The notes under the pieces: model-generated
Told to the model about the DNA's origin: nothing
The model's database searches: none
What the model saw: only the letters and a program-made list of their open reading frames with translations
In this document: piece after piece, positions 10,183 to 23,364 of the stretch
How the letters are laid out: every line of letters starts with the position of its first letter
Position numbering within the stretch: the stretch's first letter is position 1
NCBI RefSeq assembly: GCF_008189405.1
Contig: NZ_CP043316.1
Location: forward strand, 300,001 to 332,000
Direction: 5' to 3'
Source of the DNA: Candidatus Saccharimonadota bacterium
Lineage (GTDB): Bacteria; Pseudomonadota; Alphaproteobacteria; CAJXXZ01; 1604HC
DNA: 32,000 bases
Program-made: the position numbers and the translations under genes

Positions 10183-13100
10183 TCATACAGTCCATAAGCC
10201 AGGATCAACTACTTTTTCATCATATATATGATTTAATAATTGAGCGAAATACTCTAATGTTCCATGTTGATTTAACAATATATCAGTACCATTAGAAGTT
10301 TCAGGGCCATATCCACCTTCGCCAAAACTTCTTTTTTCATTAATAAATTGAAATGCAGCATTTAGTAATGCAGGATTCTGTATATATTGCACAAACTCAG
10401 ATAATGTTGAAACTATCTTATTGCTATTATGTAACAGCTTAGATATCATATGAATTTTGAAATTATCTGTTATATTCAAACCTAATCCCTCTCCATCAGA
10501 TAATGTAGTGAAAATATAAATACTAAAATAATTCATTAGAATTAGCGCTAACTTCTGCTTATATGCATTAAACATTTCATCAGAAATATTCACTCTATTC
10601 ATTTGATCAATTTGCTTTTTAGTATTACATAAAAATAATTCGAAATATTCAAAATATGCATTCATTATATAATCAATGTGACCTATCTTTTTATCCTCAC
10701 TAATTGATGTATTATTCCTAAAAGATCTTTCTAGGGCATCAATACTGTTAATAAGTGCAAATAAGAAATTCTCGTTATTATTTAGTAAATCATTTCCGTT
10801 CATTGCATATTTTAAAAAAGCATTCTGAGTAAGTGGATCATATTGATCATATTTTTTCATTACACTTCTAGAAAATCTAACAATGAATTGTAATAGATTA
10901 ATTTGCTGATCTAATTGTGATGAACTTATTTGTTGAGAAGGGTTTTCATTTTGGATAGAGCTTATATATTGTGTGAATAAAAATGATACTATATTGTTTA
11001 ACATTTCTGATTTAGTTTCATCAATAAGCATATAATCCAACCATCCTAATTTCATACTTAATGAGTTTAAGTCTGTTACAGAGCTAGATATTTCATTCAA
11101 ATCAAAAGTAGAAACAGCAAGATATTTTTTCAAACTATCATCATAACTAACAGCTCCATATTTAATAAATAAATCTACTACTTGTTTATTTAAATCTTGA
11201 GAATTATTAGCATTCACTAAACTATTAAACTTATTTACATATATTTCAACAACTTCTCTTATGTCATTGATTGAATTATTATAATAAAGGGTTATACAAA
11301 TGTTTTTCAGTAAATTATAATCTTTAATAGTTGTATATCCAGCAATATTTGGCTTGTTTTCTGGCAAATTCACATATCTAGCTATAATATTAGTATCTAT
11401 ATCTATATTTCGCGTAATTAATGCCCTTAAATATTGATTTTGATTACTTTCAATGTTTTCATACATTTCAAGTCCAACGACTAACTGTATAGCTAATTCT
11501 GTGATAAATGCTTTTTGAGAAATTGGTGGATTATTTTCTTGGTCATGTAACTTTAAAGCCCTATTAATTAATTCACATACTAATTGTGTTTTATGGTGTG
11601 TAGTTAAATTTTTAATAGAAATTTGATTATTTTGTGTATTAAATGCTTCTAAAATGCTTTCTGAATAGTTATCCCAAATATTTTCAATATATATAAATCC
11701 ATTGTTTACATTATTAATTAGATCGCTACTTATTATAACTGGTGCAATAATCCTAAATAACTGATCTGAGTATATTGGTTGTGATCCATATATTTCTCTT
11801 ATATAACTGAAATAATCATATGCTAACTTCTGATGATTTGCATTGCTCACATAGCTATTTATATGCATAATTGCATCTAATGCATCATTATTTATTTTAT
11901 CTATTTTACAATTTGACAACATTATAATATGCTTAATTATTTTCATTGCATATTCTGGTTCAATATAGTTGGTTCCTAATTTTTTTAAATGCTCTACAGT
12001 ATATGCTGTGAATGTAAAATTGATATTGTTCTTTTTGCTTTCACCTATCGCATAAGCACTTAACGCATCATTTCCATATATCATTCGATCGCGTATATCA
12101 ACAATTAACTCCCTTAACTTTAATGCACCAGTTGGCCTACTCATCTCACCTTTGATCCAACGAACTTCATTAGCTATGCTACCAGATTTATTTTTATTAA
12201 AAGCAGAATCAACATGCCTATCAATTTCTTCTGCTTCTTTTAATATTTTTCCTGCTTTATAGTTAATCGAATTTGCAACTCCCATTAATGCACCATCAGA
12301 TTGAAGGTCCATTTTTATTTGATTAATATTTGCATTAATATCACCATTAGGCTGTAATGCTTGAAGTATCAAGCTCATTTTGCTTCCAATATCACCATCA
12401 ATTTCTAGTATTTTCTTAATACAATCAACTTGATTTGCTAGTGTATCATCTTTTTCTTTATTTAATTGATCTTGTACATATTCTAATATTTCTCTAAAAG
12501 TTTTAATCTGATTTTGGCTTGAGTATGGATCTGGATTCATTTGTGTATCAATATTATTAACTTTTGAACTTATATCTTTAATTGCGATATCAAAAGGCCC
12601 TCCAGCTCTTACCGCTTGTGATATGAAAGTTACCTTCTCATTTATTTTATCTGTTTTTCCACTGACTGTATCTAACTTTGTATTTGTTTGAGCAATTTTA
12701 CCATTTACTACTTTTGCTACAGTATTCGTATCATCTACTTTTATAGATATTGTATTAACTTTTGTCTGTGTGGCATCTGCCTTATTATGCAACTCATTCA
12801 CTCTTTTCAAAGTTTCACTTACAAGCCCTTTAAGTAATTTTGGGTCATTAATATTAGATACCTCACGCAATATTTGATTTAGTATAGCTTGGAAATCAAT
12901 TGTATCACCTCCATTAGGTATGAAAAATGCAACTAAAGCTGCTTTAATATGATCTTGCATAATTTTATCATTATCATTTCCTTCTAAAATCTCTAGCATG
13001 TTTTTCAACATATTTTGACCTTCTATACCATCAGTAAAAAATCCCTTGATTTCTCCACAACACTTTTCTAATGCTGATAATATTTCATCATTCAAAGATT

Positions 13101-13929
13101 TGTTATTTTGAATTTTTGTGAGTATTTCTGCTAAATCACCAAAAATCTCTCCCATTTTATCTACAGATATTTCCCCTATTTTATCTGATAATTCTTTAAT
13201 ACTTAATTTAATAGCTTCATTTTGCTGATTAACATTAGTAACACCTTCTAGAATTTCACGTTTATTTTCTTCTTGGTTATAGTGATTTAAAATACTACTC
13301 ATTGAATTATTTATCGATTCATCTATTTTTGCTTCATGACAAATAAAATCCATAATATCTTTTCTACGATCTTCAGTGCTAAATGCATTTTTCAAACCAC
13401 TATCATCAAGCACTTTATACTGCATAGCTAATGATTTTATAATTTGAAAAAACTTTACTACATCTTGTAAATATGTAAATTCATCATTATTTAAATCACC
13501 ATGAATTGGTTTTTCTATAAGCTGCTGATTTGACACATTAATATTTAAAACATGATGGTTTTCTCCATCTTGTATTGTATTTAAATGTCTGATTGGATCA
13601 ATATCGAATTCATGGATAACTCCTTTAGAGTAATTATATGAAAACACCCTATCTATATCTTTTTCATTTCTAATACATCGTAGTCTATACGCAACAATTC
13701 CTTTTTGTTTTTGCAGATGAGATGATAAACCATCAAAGACAACTCCATTTAAATTTATTAATTTATGGCTATCTAGGCCTACCCACCCTTGCAAACATGG
13801 GGTAGAATTTTCTATTAAATTTGTACAAATTTGAATTTTTTCTAAATCTTCTGCAGAAACTGCACTATTAACCTTTAATATACATATAACCATGAAAGGA
13901 AGTATTTTATTATTACAATGCATTTTCAC
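10183..13929 (-). CDS. Giant exported protein of unknown function (1248 aa on the track). It is a paralog of 19525..22026.
   Basis: There is an N-terminal Sec-type signal (KILPFMVICILKVNSAVSA|ED). The track start at 13929 is GTG. ATG at 13923 sits 5 nt downstream of AAGGAG and is the more likely start. The protein shares C-x9-C-L-x2-W, FDG, VAYRL.C.RN, VFSY.Y.K, HHV and KFF.I.KS motifs with the 833-aa protein. I recognised no known family. Confidence 0.8.
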   Translation of the reverse strand: MKMHCNNKILPFMVICILKVNSAVSAEDLEKIQICTNLIENSTPCLQGWVGLDSHKLINLNGVVFDGLSSHLQKQKGIVAYRLRCIRNEKDIDRVFSYNYSKGVIHEFDIDPIRHLNTIQDGENHHVLNINVSNQQLIEKPIHGDLNNDEFTYLQDVVKFFQIIKSLAMQYKVLDDSGLKNAFSTEDRRKDIMDFICHEAKIDESINNSMSSILNHYNQEENKREILEGVTNVNQQNEAIKLSIKELSDKIGEISVDKMGEIFGDLAEILTKIQNNKSLNDEILSALEKCCGEIKGFFTDGIEGQNMLKNMLEILEGNDNDKIMQDHIKAALVAFFIPNGGDTIDFQAILNQILREVSNINDPKLLKGLVSETLKRVNELHNKADATQTKVNTISIKVDDTNTVAKVVNGKIAQTNTKLDTVSGKTDKINEKVTFISQAVRAGGPFDIAIKDISSKVNNIDTQMNPDPYSSQNQIKTFREILEYVQDQLNKEKDDTLANQVDCIKKILEIDGDIGSKMSLILQALQPNGDINANINQIKMDLQSDGALMGVANSINYKAGKILKEAEEIDRHVDSAFNKNKSGSIANEVRWIKGEMSRPTGALKLRELIVDIRDRMIYGNDALSAYAIGESKKNNINFTFTAYTVEHLKKLGTNYIEPEYAMKIIKHIIMLSNCKIDKINNDALDAIMHINSYVSNANHQKLAYDYFSYIREIYGSQPIYSDQLFRIIAPVIISSDLINNVNNGFIYIENIWDNYSESILEAFNTQNNQISIKNLTTHHKTQLVCELINRALKLHDQENNPPISQKAFITELAIQLVVGLEMYENIESNQNQYLRALITRNIDIDTNIIARYVNLPENKPNIAGYTTIKDYNLLKNICITLYYNNSINDIREVVEIYVNKFNSLVNANNSQDLNKQVVDLFIKYGAVSYDDSLKKYLAVSTFDLNEISSSVTDLNSLSMKLGWLDYMLIDETKSEMLNNIVSFLFTQYISSIQNENPSQQISSSQLDQQINLLQFIVRFSRSVMKKYDQYDPLTQNAFLKYAMNGNDLLNNNENFLFALINSIDALERSFRNNTSISEDKKIGHIDYIMNAYFEYFELFLCNTKKQIDQMNRVNISDEMFNAYKQKLALILMNYFSIYIFTTLSDGEGLGLNITDNFKIHMISKLLHNSNKIVSTLSEFVQYIQNPALLNAAFQFINEKRSFGEGGYGPETSNGTDILLNQHGTLEYFAQLLNHIYDEKVVDPGLWTV

Positions 13930-14129: not shown

Positions 14130-15464
14130 TTGTCAAAACTGAAAAATGTATATATTATTGATCAAATGGATGGGTTACTATTTGATCAAGTCATTAAAAA
14201 TGCTAAAGAATTTGCTGATATAGAGCAAGCATTTGAATATTGTACGGATTTTTATAATAAGCAAACAAACTTACTGACTGAAAGTACGAACGAGGATCCT
14301 GATACTCAAATACAAGTGCATTACCCATATATCGGATTAATTATCAAAGATGGTGATCATTCACATTATTATGGGAATACAATCACACACCCAGTTATGC
14401 TAAAAGAAGCATACTTAAATCAAATTAAGAAAATCATCAAGCAAAATACAGAATTTAAAATCTTAATTGGAGAATCGTATTATCCTATGTCATTAGCTTT
14501 TGTATGTGAAGATTTATTTAATAGCTTAAAAATAGAAAAAACTATTAGCATGCCATGTATCGCTAGAATCAGAAAAGGGATGCAAGAAATAGAGCATGGT
14601 AAAGATATTAATAGAATTGGGTTTTTTCATGCTGAGCATATTGATTATTGCTTAAATAGGCTACACCACTACTGCGGCTCACATGCCAAACATTTTCAAA
14701 ATAATATTATAGTTACAAATTATAAGATGTATATAGATTTTTTTATAGAAGATGGTAAGAAATGGGTTGATGAAGGAATATATGATTGTATTATTGGGCC
14801 AGATATAGAGTATTCAAAATCACAGAATCACTTTGCTGATAACATATCTCTACCACAAATGCCTGCTTATCATTTAAAGAAAGCTAATGGAGATGGAATT
14901 ACTATTATTAATGTTGGTGTAGGCCCTAGTAATTCAAAAAATATTACAGATCATTTGGCTGTGTTGCCCTCAAAGTCATGGCTTATGCTTGGTCATTGTG
15001 CTGGATTAAAGAACACACAAAAGCTTGGTGATTATGTAATAGCTCAAAATTATGCAAGATATGATAATGTGCTGGATAAATATGTTTCAAATAAAATACC
15101 AATACCAAGCTCAACAGCAATAACTAAACAATTAGAAAAAAATGTTAAGAAATTTAAATTTAATGGAGAGCAAGTTTATCAAGGCACAGTAATAACAACT
15201 GCTGATAGGAATTGGGAATTAGATTGTGATATGGTTAATGAGTTTATAGACTCTAAAGCAATTGCAATTGATATGGAATCTGGAACTATCGCAACAAACG
15301 CTTTTAGGTTTTCTGTATCATGTGCTGCATTTTTATGTATTTCTGATATGCCATTACATGGTAAATTAAAACTTAGAGGAATGGCGAAGAATTTCTATCA
15401 AACAAAAGTAAGGCATCATTTTAATATAGGAATGAATGCAATTCGTGATTTATACAATGATTAA
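14130..15464 (+). CDS. amn: AMP nucleosidase
   Basis: The C-terminal PNP/UDP-type catalytic domain matches E. coli Amn closely: GVGPSNSKNITDHLAVL....WLMLGHCAGL, GDYV.A..Y.R.D.VLD, IPIPS, GTV.TT.DRNWEL, AIDMESGTIA, FLCISD.PLHG..KL. The track start is TTG at 14130, with an alternative ATG at 14166. Confidence 0.9.
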   Translation: MSKLKNVYIIDQMDGLLFDQVIKNAKEFADIEQAFEYCTDFYNKQTNLLTESTNEDPDTQIQVHYPYIGLIIKDGDHSHYYGNTITHPVMLKEAYLNQIKKIIKQNTEFKILIGESYYPMSLAFVCEDLFNSLKIEKTISMPCIARIRKGMQEIEHGKDINRIGFFHAEHIDYCLNRLHHYCGSHAKHFQNNIIVTNYKMYIDFFIEDGKKWVDEGIYDCIIGPDIEYSKSQNHFADNISLPQMPAYHLKKANGDGITIINVGVGPSNSKNITDHLAVLPSKSWLMLGHCAGLKNTQKLGDYVIAQNYARYDNVLDKYVSNKIPIPSSTAITKQLEKNVKKFKFNGEQVYQGTVITTADRNWELDCDMVNEFIDSKAIAIDMESGTIATNAFRFSVSCAAFLCISDMPLHGKLKLRGMAKNFYQTKVRHHFNIGMNAIRDLYND

Positions 15465-15609
15465 TCATGCATATAGAAATCATAATTAAAAACTTATAAA
15501 TTAATATAATATATTCAAAGAGTTTGACTAAATTACTAGATTTTTGTTTGAAGTCGCACTATAGTATTGTTAAAAAAAAACTAATAATTTACGATAGAGT
15601 GATATTTAT

Positions 15610-16299
15610 ATGAACGATAAGCATGATTATTACAGTCAAAATATTCATAATCCAAATAGAGTAGAAATCTATCCATCTATTTTTGCATTCCAAACTTTGA
15701 ATATTGGTAATGAGATCAAAAAATTTGACCAAATCACAAGTGGATTACATATAGACATTATTGATGGTAAATATGCAAATAATTTTGGATTTCCAATTTA
15801 TATGATAAAAATGATTCAACAGTATACAAGCAAACCTATTCACATACATGCTATGGCATTTATTGATACTTATATTGGAGAAATAATTGCATGTCGCCCT
15901 CAATTAGTTTTTTTTCACCTTGACTCAACTAAAAATCCTGATCAAATCATTGAAGCTTTACATAATCATAATATTCAAATTGGAATTGCAATTTCTAATT
16001 TTGGAGAAATAGAAAAATACAATAAGATATTACAACAAAATATAATAGATAGAAAAAGAATTAATAATTTACTATTCATGACAGTAATACCTGGCAAATG
16101 TGGTCAAAAATTTATAGATAATAAAACAGAAGAGATACAGCAACTTAGAACAGCATTTCCCCAAGCAAATATTATACTTGATGGAGGAATTAATCCTAAT
16201 ATACTTAAATTGAAGAATATTAATCAAAATATTAACGGAGCTGTGATCGGATCAGCTTTATATAAACACAACATTACAGAATTTTCAAACATATTGTAG
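15610..16299 (+). CDS. rpe: Ribulose-phosphate 3-epimerase
   Basis: IYPSIFAF, LHIDIIDGKYANNFGF (cf. hvDvMDG.FVPN.tfG), MTVIPGKCGQKFI (cf. MsVnPGfgGQ.Fi), LDGGIN and VIGSALY are all present. Confidence 0.85.
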   Translation: MNDKHDYYSQNIHNPNRVEIYPSIFAFQTLNIGNEIKKFDQITSGLHIDIIDGKYANNFGFPIYMIKMIQQYTSKPIHIHAMAFIDTYIGEIIACRPQLVFFHLDSTKNPDQIIEALHNHNIQIGIAISNFGEIEKYNKILQQNIIDRKRINNLLFMTVIPGKCGQKFIDNKTEEIQQLRTAFPQANIILDGGINPNILKLKNINQNINGAVIGSALYKHNITEFSNIL

Positions 16300-16507
16300 A
16301 ATTTTTAAACATCATATTAATCACACTTTATACGCTTATTTGCCTACTACTAATTTTCAGAGTTTACCTACCTAACTTTAGAAATATTTTTAATAAATAA
16401 CTTTAACAGTTTTGAAAATATGCTTTCAATTATAATTATTTTTATATTTTATTTATAGTATTCTATTCGTATTTTCTGTATATTTTTTTCTATATATATA
16501 ATATAAT

Positions 16508-18025
16508 TTGCCTATGTTACCACGTTCTTGGCCAATGCAAAATGCAAAAAAAGTAGTTGATAGAAATTCTAATGACATTATTTTAAAAACTGGATATGGC
16601 CCATCTGGATTGCCACATTTAGGTACAATTGCAGAAATCATCAGAACAAGAATGATACAAAAATCACTTGAATTTCAAGGTAAAGAAGCTAAAATTATAG
16701 TATTTGTAGATAATATGGATGGATTTAGAAAAGTTCCCTTAAACTTACCAAAACAAGATTATTTATCTCAATTTTTAGGACTACCACTATTTAAAGTACC
16801 AGATGTATTTGGATGTTGTGAAAATTTTGCTGATCATAATATTAATGAGTTAAACAAGCTGATTGCACAATTTGATTTAACAAATCATGTTGAAGTTATC
16901 AAATCAAGTGATATGTATTTATCTGGCAAATTCAATAATGCATTGCTAAATGTTTTGCGTAATCATGAAAAAATTCTCAAAATCATGTTACCTACTTTAG
17001 GAGAAGAAAGGCAAAAAACATATAGCCCATTTCTACCAATTTCTGAGAAAAGCGGTAAAGTTCTAGAAGTAAAAATTGAAGAATATAAAGTTGATGAAGG
17101 TAAAATTACATTTTATGATGAGGGAGAATTAGTAGAAGCTGAAGTTATAAATGGAAAGTGTAAGTTACAATGGAAAGTTGATTGGGGAATGCAATGGCAT
17201 GCACTTGGCGTTGACTATGAAATGTATGGAAAAGATTTAATAGATTCATTTTCTGTTTCCAAACCAATTTGCAAAACATTAGGGTCAAAAGCTCCAGTAA
17301 ATATGGTTTATGAATTATTCTTAGATGGAGATAATAAAAAGATTTCTAAATCAAAAGGAAATGGTGTGAGCTTAGATGATTGGATGAATTTCACTCCAAT
17401 TGCTAGTATGAAGCATTTTCTATTCTTACATCCTGAAAGAGCAAAAAAACTTGATATACGAGACTTACATCGTTATGTTGATGCATACCTAAAAGATTTA
17501 CAAAGATATCATAATCAAATCAAAGAAAATGATGAAACTAGATATGAAAATCCAATTTTCTATACACATGAAAATGATTTACCTCCTCCTACAGAATTAT
17601 CTTATGCAATTTTATTAAACTTACAAAAAGGTTTACGTAGTCCTAATTATGAAACATTTCGTAATTTTATTATTAAGCAACATGGGGAGCTTAATTCTAC
17701 TGAAGAAAAATTGGTTGAATGTATATATAAATTTGCAGAGCACCATAAAACTGAATCTCACCCTGCCCCATCATGGATGATCAAATATTTGCAGAAATTT
17801 ATTGATAATATGGATGGTTTCTCTACAGGATTAGAAATGCAAACTAATTTATATGCTTTAGGGAATGAAGCAGTAGAAAATAAAGATATTATAGATTTAA
17901 AATCATGGTTTCAAACAATATATTTAGTTCTTTTTGGTGAAGAAACTGGACCAAGATTAGGTCCATTTTTTGAATTATATGGCAAAGAAGAGAGTATGAA
18001 ATTAATCAGTGCTAAGATTAAGTAA
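16508..18025 (+). CDS. lysK: Lysyl-tRNA synthetase, class I
   Basis: The class I LysRS layout is visible: SWP..NAKKV, TGYGPSGLPHLGTIAEIIRT (HIGH-equivalent) and KISKSKGNG (KMSKS). The track start is TTG at 16508, with ATG at 16514 likelier. Confidence 0.9.
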   Translation: MPMLPRSWPMQNAKKVVDRNSNDIILKTGYGPSGLPHLGTIAEIIRTRMIQKSLEFQGKEAKIIVFVDNMDGFRKVPLNLPKQDYLSQFLGLPLFKVPDVFGCCENFADHNINELNKLIAQFDLTNHVEVIKSSDMYLSGKFNNALLNVLRNHEKILKIMLPTLGEERQKTYSPFLPISEKSGKVLEVKIEEYKVDEGKITFYDEGELVEAEVINGKCKLQWKVDWGMQWHALGVDYEMYGKDLIDSFSVSKPICKTLGSKAPVNMVYELFLDGDNKKISKSKGNGVSLDDWMNFTPIASMKHFLFLHPERAKKLDIRDLHRYVDAYLKDLQRYHNQIKENDETRYENPIFYTHENDLPPPTELSYAILLNLQKGLRSPNYETFRNFIIKQHGELNSTEEKLVECIYKFAEHHKTESHPAPSWMIKYLQKFIDNMDGFSTGLEMQTNLYALGNEAVENKDIIDLKSWFQTIYLVLFGEETGPRLGPFFELYGKEESMKLISAKIK

Positions 18026-18091
18026 TTATATGCTCAAACTAAATGAATATGATAATTTATTAGATAAGCATAACAACGAACAAGTAGAATA

Positions 18092-19510
18092 ATGATGAAT
18101 AATAAAAACACATTCTCACTTTATATACACTGGCCATTTTGTAGAAAAAAATGTTCATATTGCGATTTGAATAGCCATGTACGCGATTCTATTGATGAAA
18201 ATGTTTGGATCGATGGGCTAATCAAAGAAATGCACTATTGGCATAAATTCACTGCTCACTATAAAATGGAAACTATCTTTTTTGGTGGTGGAACTCCATC
18301 ATTAATACAGCCTAAAAATATAGAAAAAATTATTAAAACTGCAAAAACATTATGGAAACCTTATACTAATAGCAAAAATAATCACTTATATATAGGCAGT
18401 AATAATTTATATAAGGGTAGAGAAATAGATAATTTATATAAAAATGATGAAATAGAAATTACATTAGAGACTAACCCATCATCATTGGAAGCAAATTCAT
18501 TGCGAGAATTCAAAAATGCAGGTATAAATCGTATTTCTTTTGGTGTCCAATCATTGGATGATGACATTTTACATTTATTGAATCGTACGCATAATGCAGA
18601 AGAGGCTTTGAAGTTCATTCAATCAAGCCTGGACATATTCAATAATGTTTCTGTAGATATTATGTATGGACTACCTACTCATACATTACAAACCTTACAA
18701 AGCACACTTGATAATTTATTAAAGCTTAATATTCATCATATATCTATTTACGAACTAACTCTTCAGAAAAACACATTACTTAACCACCAAATTGAAAATA
18801 AAGAATTGTTTTTGCCTTGCGATGAGCAAATTGCTAATGAATATGAATTGATTTTGAAAAGTTGTAAAAAACATGAGTATAATAGATATGAAATTTCAAG
18901 TTTCTCTTTGCCTGGCTATGAAAGTAGGCATAATCAAAATTATTGGCATAGTAAGCAGTTCATAGGCATTGGACCTGGAGCACATGGACGAATTTTTATA
19001 GAAAATGAAAATGATTTATATAGTATTATGCAAACTTCTACTAATATAAATGAAAGTACCAGTGTAAATAAAAATGTCTCTTCTAACCAATCTGCAGATT
19101 TTACAATTATTCCGCAAAGTGAATTAAATAAATCCAAAAATTCATATAATTCATATAGCAATGAAATTACATCTAAAAAATCTCATTACTACTCAATAGA
19201 AAATTCAAAGATACCTGAAAAATGGCTTGAAAAAGTACAAAACAAACACAATGGGTTAAAAGTATTTGAAAATATTGATATAGATACGCAAATCCAAGAG
19301 TTTATCATGATGGGTTTAAGAGTCACTGATGGATTTAGTATTTTAGATTTTGAATCTAGATTTCAAGTAAAATTTAGTACTATTACCTCCCAAGATAAAA
19401 TTAATAAATTACTTGATCATAATTATATTGAAATTAACCAACATAATATAAAACTTACATATTCAGGCATTATACGCCATGGCGCTATTTGTAAATATTT
19501 GATCTTTTAG
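18092..19510 (+). CDS. hemW: Radical SAM heme chaperone HemW / oxygen-independent coproporphyrinogen oxidase-like protein, with two low-complexity insertions
   Basis: LYIHWPFCRKKCSYCDL (CxxxCxxC radical SAM cluster), FFGGGTPS, LETNP, NRISFGVQS, D.MYGLP, IS.YEL, YEIS.F, NYW and GIGPGAHG are present. At 472 aa it is about 90 aa longer than typical HemW. Confidence 0.85.
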   Translation: MMNNKNTFSLYIHWPFCRKKCSYCDLNSHVRDSIDENVWIDGLIKEMHYWHKFTAHYKMETIFFGGGTPSLIQPKNIEKIIKTAKTLWKPYTNSKNNHLYIGSNNLYKGREIDNLYKNDEIEITLETNPSSLEANSLREFKNAGINRISFGVQSLDDDILHLLNRTHNAEEALKFIQSSLDIFNNVSVDIMYGLPTHTLQTLQSTLDNLLKLNIHHISIYELTLQKNTLLNHQIENKELFLPCDEQIANEYELILKSCKKHEYNRYEISSFSLPGYESRHNQNYWHSKQFIGIGPGAHGRIFIENENDLYSIMQTSTNINESTSVNKNVSSNQSADFTIIPQSELNKSKNSYNSYSNEITSKKSHYYSIENSKIPEKWLEKVQNKHNGLKVFENIDIDTQIQEFIMMGLRVTDGFSILDFESRFQVKFSTITSQDKINKLLDHNYIEINQHNIKLTYSGIIRHGAICKYLIF

Positions 19511-19524
19511 ATAAAACAATCAAA

Positions 19525-22026
19525 TTACATAGGGATTTCTTCAGGATCTCCACCTCCATTTCCTATCTCTAATATTGATAAAGCATGTTCAGATCCTGGG
19601 AAAGGGCTCATTATCAAGTATATGTGCATAAATCGTAAGAATTGAGACTGTGTACTTATTAACAATCTTAATACATTTTCATTTTGTGCTATGTATGACA
19701 TATATTTTCTAACCATACATCCAGCCTCATATTTTAAGCTGTTATTATTAATATTAATATTTTCATAATCCATAATTGTATTTGTAACAAATGTTAATAA
19801 ATGTAAATATGCTGGATGATTATTTTCTCCAAATTCTGCAATCTGTTTTTTCATATAGCAGAATAGCTCGCTGTCATACTGCTTCAAAAACAATGCTGTA
19901 TTCATATTTGGTTCGATTGCAATTTTACTGAATAATTTTGTTAATACTTTATCGTATATATTATCCAAATTATTTGCCTCTAGATCTGAAGTGTCTTTAT
20001 TTCTCATTATTGCGACTGCTAAGTCAATTGCTTGTTTTTTAGTTAATGCTTTTGCAATATTAATATCATTATCATTACTTGTAAAGCTTTGAGAAAACAT
20101 ATGATCTATTTTTAATACTGTATCAGATTGTTTGTTTCCACTACTATCATATACAACATCATCATTTGAATTAGAGAATCCATATTTGAAGATTTGAGAC
20201 AAAATTTCTCTTCGTTTTTGTCTATTGTCATCATTATGAGCTATATCTTCAAAAACAACTGAATTATTCTTCAATGCTCTTAATTTAAATACACTATCTA
20301 TTCCATTAGCATATCCACTTAGTGTATTAATCACAATATTGTAATCATTTTTATTTGCATTGCCATCTTCATAAGGTGTTATATTCATATCTTCATTATA
20401 TAAACCTTTAAATAATTGCATAATATCTGGAGCAAAAGCAATTGCAAACTTTGTGACTTCAGATCTGATTTCTTGTTTACCTATCTCATTAGATTCTTCA
20501 CTCATAAATATATCAGCAACATGTTTTATAGATAATTGTAAATCCCCACCATTAATATCTTTATAATTAGATATAAGCCCTTTATCTAAGTGAGCATTAA
20601 CAACTCCAGAAGCCATAGGGAAGATATATTTATTCTGCATTACAAATGGGTTGCCATCACTAAATTCAGCACCATTAAGCAAAGCATATATTTCTGATAT
20701 ATTATTAATATCTGAACTTAAAATAGAGTATCTTCTAGTTATATGATGTATTGTATCGTTAATCAGCTCTAGTTTATCTGGATCAGCAAGGTACATATTA
20801 GCAGACATTATGCTTTTTAAATCATCATGCTTCAGCATATTTTCTTTAGTAAATGATTCAAGAGTTGGGAACCATAATGGCATCATGTATCTTAGATAAT
20901 CAGATGCTAAATTATCAAATTGTAGATTAATTCGATCATTACGGTAACTTAGCACTCTGCGTTCAGGTTGTTGAAATTGATTAAATTGACCAAGCATAAA
21001 TTCAGAGTATAATGTATCAAAATTATCATCATTAAGAATTGATGCTTCATCATCAGAAATATTATTGATAATCATCGTAATCGCATCTATCACATTTTGA
21101 GATGGATTTGTAAAACCACATGAAGATTTCTCTATAATAGTTTTTACTAACCACATTGCATGTACTGAAGATTCAATTGGAACAGGGTTATTTCTTTTAT
21201 CAAAAATATAATGATTCACGAATTGTGTAGCTGAGATACTTCCATCTTGTAATTCATTCAACCATTTAACTTGATACTCACCTACAATACCTAAGATTTC
21301 TGGATTTCTTTCTGGGCGTATAAGTATATTAAGATTTGCACAATTATGTTGCAATTGAGCAAAAGATATAATACTGATTATAGAATCATTCATAGAATGC
21401 CTTGAATTCACTTCCAAACAAATACGCTTCATTGTATCTACATTATGTGTATCATCAAGTGAACTTTTTAATTTATTATCTTTTAGTAATGCAATTTGTA
21501 ATTTATAAGACTTAAGAATATGGAAAAATTTATCAGCATCTTTGTAGTAAGATCTTTGATCATCAGATAACTTATTTTTATCAGATAGTAAATCTCTTAC
21601 AAGATGATCAGTTGTTAGATCAACTTTTGCAACATGATGTATATCATCATCTTGCACATCTGCCAAATCTGTATTGACATTAAAATTGTTACCAAAGTGA
21701 TGTAATTCATTTTTTGTATAATCATAGCTAAAAACTTCATCAAATGCTTTCCCATTCCTATTACACTTTAATCTGTAAGCAACATATCCAGTAGATCTAG
21801 ATTCCAATGAATTAATTCCATCAAATTCAATTTCATCTTTGATTAAAAAGTTTTTAATTGCATCGCTATCCATACCATGTAACCAAGATCTCAAGCAATT
21901 TGATTCATTATTTATTAAACCAGGGCAAGTACTTAGCTTACTATAATCAGTAGGCTGTTCCTTTCTTGCAAATGATGTTTGCAACATGCAAATAGTTAGC
22001 AATGGTAATAATTTTCTATTATTCAT
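19525..22026 (-). CDS. Large exported protein of unknown function (833 aa). It is a paralog of 10183..13929.
   Basis: There is a Sec-type signal (RKLLPLLTICMLQTSFA|RKE). GGAGG lies 4 nt upstream of the ATG. N-terminal residues ~30-215 are collinear with the 1248-aa protein. Further shared patches are HAMWLVKTIIEKSSC..NVIDAI versus YAMKIIKHIIMLSNC..DALDAI, and SELFCYMKKQI versus FELFLCNTKKQI. Confidence 0.8.
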   Translation of the reverse strand: MNNRKLLPLLTICMLQTSFARKEQPTDYSKLSTCPGLINNESNCLRSWLHGMDSDAIKNFLIKDEIEFDGINSLESRSTGYVAYRLKCNRNGKAFDEVFSYDYTKNELHHFGNNFNVNTDLADVQDDDIHHVAKVDLTTDHLVRDLLSDKNKLSDDQRSYYKDADKFFHILKSYKLQIALLKDNKLKSSLDDTHNVDTMKRICLEVNSRHSMNDSIISIISFAQLQHNCANLNILIRPERNPEILGIVGEYQVKWLNELQDGSISATQFVNHYIFDKRNNPVPIESSVHAMWLVKTIIEKSSCGFTNPSQNVIDAITMIINNISDDEASILNDDNFDTLYSEFMLGQFNQFQQPERRVLSYRNDRINLQFDNLASDYLRYMMPLWFPTLESFTKENMLKHDDLKSIMSANMYLADPDKLELINDTIHHITRRYSILSSDINNISEIYALLNGAEFSDGNPFVMQNKYIFPMASGVVNAHLDKGLISNYKDINGGDLQLSIKHVADIFMSEESNEIGKQEIRSEVTKFAIAFAPDIMQLFKGLYNEDMNITPYEDGNANKNDYNIVINTLSGYANGIDSVFKLRALKNNSVVFEDIAHNDDNRQKRREILSQIFKYGFSNSNDDVVYDSSGNKQSDTVLKIDHMFSQSFTSNDNDINIAKALTKKQAIDLAVAIMRNKDTSDLEANNLDNIYDKVLTKLFSKIAIEPNMNTALFLKQYDSELFCYMKKQIAEFGENNHPAYLHLLTFVTNTIMDYENININNNSLKYEAGCMVRKYMSYIAQNENVLRLLISTQSQFLRFMHIYLIMSPFPGSEHALSILEIGNGGGDPEEIPM

Positions 22027-22185
22027 TATTCCTCCGTATATTTTTATAAATTAAAACAGTTTATTATTAACATTATGTAAATTTAGCATATATTTTGCTG
22101 TATTTTATTATTAATTGCTTATATTACTAAAAATAAAACCTACCTAAATATTGCTATTAGATACCTTACAATATAACATTATTTT

Positions 22186-23364
22186 ATGTTTTGCTCTGGC
22201 CCAACAAAAAAATATGCAGAATTTTCATCCTATAATTTATTAGAAGGTTTAGGTAGATCTCATAGATCTGATTTATGGGAAAATAAAATTCAAGATATAT
22301 ATTCTTTAATTAAAAAATCATTACAAATCCCAGATAATTACCAAATAGGGTTTATCAATGGATCAGCAACAGCAGCAATAGATTCATTGTTTTGGAATTT
22401 TTTAGGTTCAAAACCATGTCATGTGCTAGAGACTGGAGTATTTAGTAAAAGATGGGGAAATGAGATATTTAATGTACTAAAAATCCCTGGAAAATCAATT
22501 CAGCCCATCAACTTAATCAAGCAAACTAACTCATATCAAAATAATTTTGATAATCTAAATAATACTAATTATGGTCCTAATGTTCTAAATAACAGATTCA
22601 ATTATAATTATGATTTCGTATTTACTATGGTAGAAACCACAAATGGATCTAGGTGGTTTGATAAAAATGTTTTAAATAAAATTCAAGGATTAAAGTTCTG
22701 TGATGCAACCTCTGCAGTCTTTTGTGAGAATATAGATTGGAATTTATTAGACTATACTGCTTTTTCATTTCAAAAAGCATTAGGTGCAGAAGCTGGAATA
22801 GGATGTGTTGTATTAAGCCCTAAAGCTATCGATCATATGAATAATCATAATCCTAAATTCCCAACCCCACGATTTCTACAAATCAATCATAGTATTTTCC
22901 AAGGAAAGCTTAATAATACCCCATCACTTATTTCATTAAATGATATTGCGATTAACTTAAGCATTTTTTTAAATAAAGGTGGGTTACCAAATGCAATCAA
23001 GCAATGCAAGTTGAATCAAAGTCAAATTATGGATATTTTATCTCCAACATTACAGTGTATAAACTGCAATCACATCAATACAAATCATAATGCAAATGCA
23101 ATTTTATGCATGGAAATGAGTCAATGGGGAAATAATCTCATTAATCATAATATATATAGTGATAAAATAAGTAAAAATATAATAGATGAAGAAAAATGGC
23201 GAATCATACATAAAGTTGCCAAACAATCTGAGCAATTCGGAATATTTGATATAGCAGGACATCCTGAAGATACTCCATGTTGGAGATTTTGGATTGGGCC
23301 CACTATAGATAAAATTCAATCATATATTAACCAATTTATAGATATTATAAGGGATGCAATTTAG
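22186..23364 (+). CDS. serC: Phosphoserine aminotransferase (alphaproteobacterial long-form SerC)
   Basis: FCSGPTKK, GRSHRS, DNYQIGF.NGSAT.AIDS, FCDATSAVF..NIDW..LDYTAFSFQKALGAEAG (PLP-Lys context SxQK), LSPKAI, NTPS and WRFWIGPTI are collinear with the alpha-type SerC pattern (FSSGP ... GRSHR ... ICDATSA ... SWQKvLGGE ... RIWCGATV). Confidence 0.8.
   Translation: MFCSGPTKKYAEFSSYNLLEGLGRSHRSDLWENKIQDIYSLIKKSLQIPDNYQIGFINGSATAAIDSLFWNFLGSKPCHVLETGVFSKRWGNEIFNVLKIPGKSIQPINLIKQTNSYQNNFDNLNNTNYGPNVLNNRFNYNYDFVFTMVETTNGSRWFDKNVLNKIQGLKFCDATSAVFCENIDWNLLDYTAFSFQKALGAEAGIGCVVLSPKAIDHMNNHNPKFPTPRFLQINHSIFQGKLNNTPSLISLNDIAINLSIFLNKGGLPNAIKQCKLNQSQIMDILSPTLQCINCNHINTNHNANAILCMEMSQWGNNLINHNIYSDKISKNIIDEEKWRIIHKVAKQSEQFGIFDIAGHPEDTPCWRFWIGPTIDKIQSYINQFIDIIRDAI

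Follow-up and report, generated by a model that had tools for sequence, protein, structure and literature searches.

Two paralogous genes in a stretch of 32,000 nucleotides (positions 300,001 to 332,000 of contig NZ_CP043316.1; hereafter, the window) encode proteins of 1248 and 833 amino acids (aa), and the question raised by this locus is how a difference of 415 residues arose between them. The window genome is a single contig of 622,357 bp with a G+C content of ~26% and belongs to Cytomitobacter, a Holosporaceae genus of endosymbionts of diplonemid protists. Passages of a preprint on diplonemid endosymbionts give sizes of 605–632 kb for genomes of this type (bioRxiv 10.1101/719211).

A preliminary description of the window, made from its sequence alone, proposed that the long paralog carries a helical cassette of ~400 residues that the short paralog lacks. 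We favour, with a probability of about 60% for the reading as a whole, a more composite picture, namely that both proteins belong to an orphan family of exported proteins with a composite, hypervariable linker and that a part of the long form's linker, here called block B, expanded in situ. The family comprises nine proteins of 780–1250 aa in four Cytomitobacter genomes, two in the window genome (G000) and seven in three others, namely Candidatus Cytomitobacter indipagum (NZ_CP043315.1; G002) and two further Cytomitobacter genomes (G001 and G003), and it was found, in multiple copies, in every Cytomitobacter genome examined. The long paralog is referred to as P0001, the short one as P0002 and the other members by genome and length (e.g. 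G2_969). All nine proteins are collinear: a putative signal peptide is followed by an N-domain (C..W..FF..IC.E.K), the YAM patch and, in the C-terminal part, a CC(Y)xK motif.

Location of the length difference

The features of the two window genes are as follows (ORF, open reading frame; AF2, AlphaFold2).

10183..13929, minus strand: gene of the long paralog (1248-aa ORF starting at GTG; the identical database protein, P0003, has 1246 aa)
13852..13929, minus strand: signal-peptide-like segment, residues 1–26 (read from the sequence and an alignment of six N-termini)
13264..13851, minus strand: shared N-domain, residues ~27–222 (BLASTP, E = 8e-34; hhalign, E = 2e-27; alignment)
12880..13251, minus strand: block A, residues ~227–350 (E-INS-i gap block; BLAST and local alignments to mid-length relatives)
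12760..12879, minus strand: island, residues ~351–390, DPK..L.G.V......NELH (Smith-Waterman against shuffled sequences and E-INS-i; weak support)
12598..12834, minus strand: heptad coiled-coil core, residues ~366–444, overlapping the island and the start of block B (self-similarity lags; heptad score)
12025..12759, minus strand: block B, residues ~391–635 (E-INS-i gap block 437–656 plus small gaps; ortholog alignment)
11908..11952, minus strand: YAM patch, residues 660–674, Y-A-M-x-I-I-K ... C (landmark two; start of the shared C-terminal module)
10186..12024, minus strand: C-terminal module, residues ~636–1248 (landmark spacing; helical AF2 model of the 833-aa paralog)
10606-10644, minus strand: third landmark, Cys1101 (E.F.C..KKQI), within the C-terminal module
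19525..22026, minus strand: gene of the short paralog, 833 aa (ORF list, BLASTP)
21277..21345, minus strand: cassette-equivalent site in the 833-aa paralog, residues ~228–250 (low-confidence loop between two helices; AF2 and alignment)

In the ORF list the long gene begins at GTG 13929; because the identical database protein is 1246 aa long and begins at ATG 13923, the latter codon is suggested to be the real start. The signal-peptide-like segment has no lipobox conserved across the family in the alignment of six N-termini. The residues of the N-domain that are invariant in the family are Cys35, Trp49, Phe160-Phe161 and Cys197.

The proposed cassette was located: nucleotides 12010-13257 of the minus strand do encode residues 225–640 of the 1248-aa ORF, and the three helix-like strings quoted from it begin at residues 244, 482 and 562. 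An N-domain common to both paralogs was confirmed by BLASTP (residues 6–214 of the long protein with 3–220 of the short one, 35% identity, E = 8e-34). BLASTP of P0001 against P0002 is significant over this domain only, with the YAM/HAM patch by itself at E = 0.17. The N-domain is likewise the top match in a profile–profile comparison of the long and short forms with hhalign (E = 2e-27). Once it was removed, residues ~628–793 of P0001 matched ~274–431 of P0002 in collinear order (E = 4e-5 to 6e-5, probability 64–70%), with weaker collinear matches further on, including 1094–1116 with 716–738. The YAM patch is further supported by a BLASTP match of G1_796 (residues 312–369) to residues 623–687 (E = 0.007) and by hhalign (E = 4e-5).

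Three positions, used here as landmarks, do not vary among the nine proteins: the Cys of IC.E.K in the N-domain, the YAM-patch Ala and a Cys within the C-terminal motif E.xCC(Y)xK..L. They divide the two window proteins into the following intervals (residues).

Start to N-domain Cys: long 197, short 203
N-domain Cys to YAM Ala: long 464, short 87
YAM Ala to C-terminal Cys: long 440, short 433
C-terminal Cys to end: long 147, short 110

Thus, 377 of the 415 extra residues (91%) fall into a single interval, the remaining ones differing (long minus short) by -6, +7 and +37 residues; the extra length is localized, as had been proposed, and is not spread over many small insertions and deletions. 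The richness of the segment in Lys, Glu, Asp, Ile, Leu and Asn proved hardly specific, these residues making up 54% of the cassette vs 50–51% of its flanks. Aromatic residues account for 4.3% of the cassette vs 7.5–11.2% of the flanks, and Lys, Ala and Gly are enriched in it.

Composite structure of the linker

In the multiple alignment of all nine family proteins (E-INS-i), the 833-aa protein shows four gaps relative to the long one, at residues 227–350 (124 aa), 378–391 (14 aa), 413–425 (13 aa) and 437–656 (220 aa), and residues ~351–436 of the long protein are aligned to what remains of the linker in the short one. In Smith-Waterman comparisons with shuffled sequences, residues 348–388 of P0001 matched 230–268 of P0002 with z = 2.2 (p ~0.04) and residues 338–392 matched 232–282 of G2_796 with z = 3.9 (p ~0.007). 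Both of these alignments fall on the same site, the island, in agreement with E-INS-i. A profile comparison of the cassette with the remaining part of the short form (hhalign) gave no match (E = 0.36). On this sequence evidence, the length difference is probably made up of two large gaps (124 and 220 aa) and two small ones (14 and 13 aa) around a weakly alignable island.

The island is preceded by block A, whose amphipathic helices lead into a Cys-Cys motif (residues 290–291) and then into a GQN..L...L.IL.G.D stretch that is conserved; the 833-aa paralog lacks this block, and the mid-length relatives keep part of it. The region of the Cys-Cys motif (residues 279–322 of P0001) aligned locally to residues 226–272 of G1_796 with z = 3.8, and when the long protein is aligned by BLAST to G3_779 and G2_969, the match reaches into the cassette, to residues 289–295. 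Block B, which contains the remaining coiled coil, a Gly/Pro-containing break (~441–470), more helices and a conserved EAEEIDR motif, was seen in the two long orthologs only. The cassette thus appears to be composite, with block A partly common to the mid-length members, the island weakly common to all and block B limited to the long orthologs. Two elements of the preliminary description have to be revised accordingly: the segment can hardly be one discrete cassette from a single event when its first ~100 residues share the Cys-Cys motif and the residues following it with the linkers of other members, and the part specific to the long form shrinks from ~400 to ~245 residues, i.e. block B.

Coiled coil and predicted structure

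The self-similarity of residues 375–470 is enriched at lags of 7 (z = 4.4), 14 (z = 5.3), 21 (z = 3.1) and 28 residues (z = 4.3), and that of residues 370–530 of the C. indipagum ortholog at lag 14 (z = 9.2). Lag 11, the hendecad spacing, is not enriched in either region, lags 7 and 14 being dominant; a hendecad right-handed coiled coil or fibrous stalk was therefore rejected, as the periods are 7 and 14 residues and there is no 11-residue signal. At nucleotides 12619-12777, the two periods correspond to a heptad pattern with a two-heptad sequence repeat. Scoring of a/d positions identified residues 366–444 as the longest heptad segment of the window protein, with shorter segments at background level, and a heptad segment of 221 residues (346–566) in the C. 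indipagum ortholog. If a canonical coiled coil is taken to require at least 4–5 heptads uninterrupted by helix breakers, with hydrophobic core positions recurring every 7 residues, this core qualifies by its sequence and the whole of residues 225–640 does not. Periodicity typical of amphipathic helices exceeded the 95–99% levels of shuffled sequences in residues 229–298, 397–494 and 495–578 and did not exceed them in 299–368 or beyond 580. The coiled-coil module envisaged in the preliminary description hence comes down to a genuine heptad core of ~80 residues and does not run continuously over 400.

The AF2 model of the cassette, built from a two-sequence alignment, contains 16 helices and is all-helical by DSSP, with a mean predicted local distance difference test score (pLDDT) of 37, too low for a fold comparison. 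The helical nature of the segment is therefore predicted at low confidence. The model of the 833-aa protein (m9fa30fb9081b, nine sequences; mean pLDDT 57) comprises an alpha/beta N-domain (pLDDT 70–88), a loop at residues 228–250 with pLDDT <50 and helices 212–230 and 242–260 on either side of it, and an all-helical C-terminal module with pLDDT mostly 30–65. The loop corresponds to the position of the cassette in the long form, whose C-terminal module is presumably, by analogy with this model, also all-helical. The top matches of the model in Foldseek, ARM/HEAT proteins, had a template modelling (TM) score of only 0.17, at the pLDDT of mostly 30–65 of the C-terminal module; VIA-align produced generic helical-repeat matches with a best Z of 10.5, under the level of ~13 that is usual for helical models.

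Sequences resembling the coiled coil are common elsewhere. A HMMER profile of residues 216–1248 and the ortholog, compared with 1.84 billion representative proteins, matched 96 foreign proteins with E-values down to 4e-30, all of them in profile columns 128–395 (residues 342–580, mostly 370–525); no relatives of the C-terminal module outside the genus were found in this set. Because each of the nine proteins scanned from among the strongest foreign matches matched many coiled-coil Pfam families simultaneously, the foreign similarity is, as judged from these sequences, one of periodic pattern rather than ancestry.

Length variation, tandem repeats and gene conversion

Across the nine family members, the junction between the N-domain Cys and the YAM patch has lengths of 87, 108, 141, 141, 150, 150, 229, 443 and 464 aa. 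In two C. indipagum genes, the linker contains DNA tandem repeats: a 75-bp repeat (2.9 copies, 80–85% matches) in the linker of the 969-aa gene and, in block B of the 1192-aa gene, a 126-bp repeat that encodes 42 aa or six heptads (2.5 copies, 79% matches), the two repeats being located at L008:10525-10743 and L008:16961-17273. No DNA tandem repeats were detected in the family genes of the window. The 1192-aa protein, the ortholog of P0001, carries the entire cassette at the corresponding position, with 26% identity over residues 216–640 vs 24–30% elsewhere. A search for direct repeats flanking the window cassette, such as an insertion might have left, returned only short, chance-like AT-rich matches, and no second copy of the cassette was found in the window genome. 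Because the junction lengths vary, the C. indipagum genes carry tandem repeats and no other copy of the cassette is present, the junction has probably varied through in-situ growth and shrinkage of a repeat-prone linker as repeats were expanded or deleted.

Another tandem repeat of C. indipagum (30 bp, 4 copies, 96% matches; L008:14489-14608) lies in a 154-aa ORF between hemW and the long gene; BLASTP found no counterpart of this ORF among the ORFs of the window.

In G001 and G003, the family members form paralog pairs that are ~100% identical over residues 1 to ~300 and 1 to ~350, respectively, i.e. over the N-domain, linker and YAM patch, with ~20% identity after the patch. This pattern points to a recent gene conversion that was confined to the 5' module and had its breakpoint directly behind the YAM patch. 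The G003 pair is found at L009:6411-8747 and L009:10857-13196 and the G001 pair at L020:5327-7717 and L020:8875-11421. The variable junction, the tandem repeats and the gene conversion in the sister genomes G001 and G003, which involved the 5' module, bear out the suggestion that the family evolves in a modular fashion.

Polarity and genomic context

The trees of the N-domain and of the C-terminal module both separate the G001 and G003 proteins from all those of G000 and G002 with 98–100% support. The same split between species is obtained from a concatenation of six housekeeping proteins (100/100). Within the G000/G002 group, the long and short forms make up distinct clades. The long form, confined to G000 and G002, occupies its own locus beside amn; the remaining family copies adjoin hemW or marR. 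The Cys-Cys motif of block A is present in G001, G2_969 and the long forms. With a root outside the G000/G002 group, block B would be a gain in the long lineage and the absence of block A from the 833-aa lineage a loss, as these distributions suggest.

The gene order around the family members is rearranged among the Cytomitobacter genomes (window positions 14130–23364 compared with L008, L009 and L020). In the window, lysK and rpe are located between amn and hemW; they are not so located in C. indipagum, and family genes are found at the breakpoints.

Origin of the long form

Taken together, these data are consistent with the following scenario. In every family member, a signal peptide would be followed by an alpha/beta N-domain that contains Cys and measures ~200 aa, then by the hypervariable, helical linker and lastly by a C-terminal module that is all-helical and ~450–590 aa long, and the cassette would simply be the long form's version of the family linker, which ranges from 87 aa in the 833-aa protein through 108–229 aa in other members to 443–464 aa in the two long orthologs. 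Block A with its Cys-Cys motif would be ancestral and subsequently lost from the 833-aa lineage, with the short island retained in common. Block B (~245 aa), around the heptad coiled coil, would have arisen in the long lineage, most likely by tandem duplication of heptad-phased units followed by divergence. The linker may serve as a spacer and/or an oligomerization rod, fixing how far apart the N- and C-terminal modules lie or in what stoichiometry they occur.

One alternative is a single step in which one paralog gained or lost a discrete module of ~400 aa. The concentration of 91% of the length difference in one interval and the non-significant hhalign comparison of the cassette with the remainder of the short form are what such an event would leave behind. 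We nevertheless consider it unlikely, given that the multiple alignment yields two large blocks flanking an island, the first ~100 residues align to the linkers of mid-length members, Cys-Cys motif included, the junction shows six lengths in nine proteins and the tandem repeats point to stepwise growth. It is also conceivable that only the N-domain is common to the two paralogs and is fused to unrelated C-terminal parts, in which case there would have been no insertion at all. BLASTP and the first hhalign run indeed pick up the N-domain alone, and in G001 and G003 the N-terminal module recombines independently of the C-terminal one. Such domain shuffling becomes quite improbable in view of the collinear profile match of ~150 residues obtained with the N-domain masked (E = 4e-5) and the weak collinear matches beyond it, the invariance of the YAM Ala and the C-terminal Cys motif in 9/9 proteins at nearly identical spacing (440 vs 433 aa) and the fact that the tree of the C-terminal module recovers the same groups as that of the N-domain.

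Capture of block B from another gene, the host or a mobile element with a coiled-coil domain would account for its limitation to one clade and for the foreign matches with E-values down to 4e-30. These same foreign proteins match many unrelated coiled-coil Pfam families, which points to the repeat pattern; moreover, in block B the orthologs are as divergent as in the rest of the protein, the C. indipagum ortholog carries an internal tandem duplication, there are no convincing flanking repeats, and an imported domain would have to be reconciled with the lack of a second copy in the genome and with the presence elsewhere of generic coiled-coil look-alikes only. We regard this origin as very improbable.

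Several observations nonetheless weigh against in-situ expansion of a composite linker. At a pLDDT of 37 the predicted helices of the cassette are only indicative, and residues 299–365 and 580–640, which lack a heptad signal, could form small globular helical units. The alignment of the island to the 833-aa protein is weak (p ~0.04), which leaves some room for a single block. Homology between the long and short forms in their C-terminal modules depends on a profile match of 64–70% probability plus motifs, and duplication-driven expansion is deduced from the ortholog and from periodicity at the protein level, the window gene itself having no DNA repeats. Finally, the trees are unrooted, long-branched and touched by gene conversion, and it is possible that an ancient long form was lost from G001 and G003.

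Distribution and possible role of the family

Within the collections searched, these fast-evolving, apparently Sec-exported proteins seem restricted to Cytomitobacter. An N-domain profile did not find the family in nine other genomes of the same order, and its matches among longer proteins were confined to those of Cytomitobacter. Neither the N-domain nor the C-terminal module had relatives outside the genus in Pfam, NCBIfam, PDB sequences, the ESM Atlas or two large protein searches; the NCBIfam scan of both window proteins gave zero matches, a word-based search with the whole long protein matched only that protein itself, and the cassette had no match under E = 0.59 among PDB sequences and a top score of 0.82, inside the noise range, in the ESM Atlas. 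The C. indipagum members FZC35_00955 and FZC35_00920 have been deposited as 'hypothetical protein'.

One protein from another genome of the order (G010; 920 aa, L021:2052-4814) was considered as a candidate member and rejected: it matched the N-domain profile with E = 0.008, over the first 75 profile positions alone. This signal-peptide protein, whose gene adjoins alaS, looks rich in charged residues and helix-like and is probably an unrelated exported orphan.

The site of action of the family proteins is probably the symbiont surface or the host cell. Reduced endosymbiont genomes keep few non-housekeeping genes, which makes a multi-copy exported family a good candidate for host-interaction machinery, and the module layout and its evolution provide a rational basis for the design of constructs in localization and interaction studies. 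A more specific, and rather doubtful, idea is that these proteins serve as tethers, secreted or on the symbiont surface, and that the length of their coiled-coil spacer is matched to a host structure. In that case the two paralogs, long and short, might each span a different distance or connect to a different partner, Cytomitobacter being located beside the host mitochondria, and repeat expansion together with gene conversion would allow rapid switching of length and specificity in a 622-kb genome.

Comparison with known systems

In passages of the preprint that describes the diplonemid endosymbionts, 44–106 signal-peptide proteins per genome and 22–50% hypothetical proteins are reported, and a possible role in interactions with the host or between bacteria is suggested for them (George et al. 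2019/2020, bioRxiv 10.1101/719211). Those proteins come from the same genus as the family analysed here; the family, its domain layout and its variable linker are not described in the searched passages of that preprint (bioRxiv 10.1101/719211). A literature search for comparable cases yielded nothing relevant.

At the level of sequence pattern, the coiled coil resembles Laminin_II (PF06009), DUF7310 (PF23991), NPV_P10 (PF05531), DUF1664 (PF07889) and Tropomyosin (PF00261), with which it shares a V/I-D-x-K-V-D heptad pattern. The ortholog matches generic coiled-coil Pfam families with E-values of 4e-6 to 5e-3, and the foreign look-alikes match them strongly. Both long orthologs nevertheless stay below the curated cut-offs: P0001 scores 16.6 bits with DUF7517 (gathering threshold 27) and 11.8 with Laminin_II (33), and the ortholog 27.4 with Laminin_II (33), 25.9 with DUF7310 (40) and 21.5 with NPV_P10 (29.8). 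So many simultaneous matches indicate a common periodic composition of these sequences, not family membership.

The closest parallels in architecture are offered by the streptococcal M proteins and the trimeric autotransporter adhesins YadA and BadA, whose coiled-coil stalks change length by duplication and deletion of heptad-phased repeats. There is no sequence relationship to either, and the stalk is followed here by an all-helical module of ~580 aa. Neither an LPXTG motif nor a beta-barrel anchor (YadA_anchor) was found in the window proteins (Pfam, NCBIfam) or in five relatives (Pfam). A trimeric autotransporter adhesin was rejected on the same grounds, as there is no C-terminal beta-barrel anchor and the region after the linker is predicted to be all-helical in the 833-aa model. 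By analogy, what the Cytomitobacter family would share with these proteins is the overall plan, a head-like N-terminal domain followed by a coiled coil of variable length in proteins exported through Sec, and the length difference between the two window paralogs is ordinary length evolution of a hypervariable coiled-coil linker, of a well-known kind.

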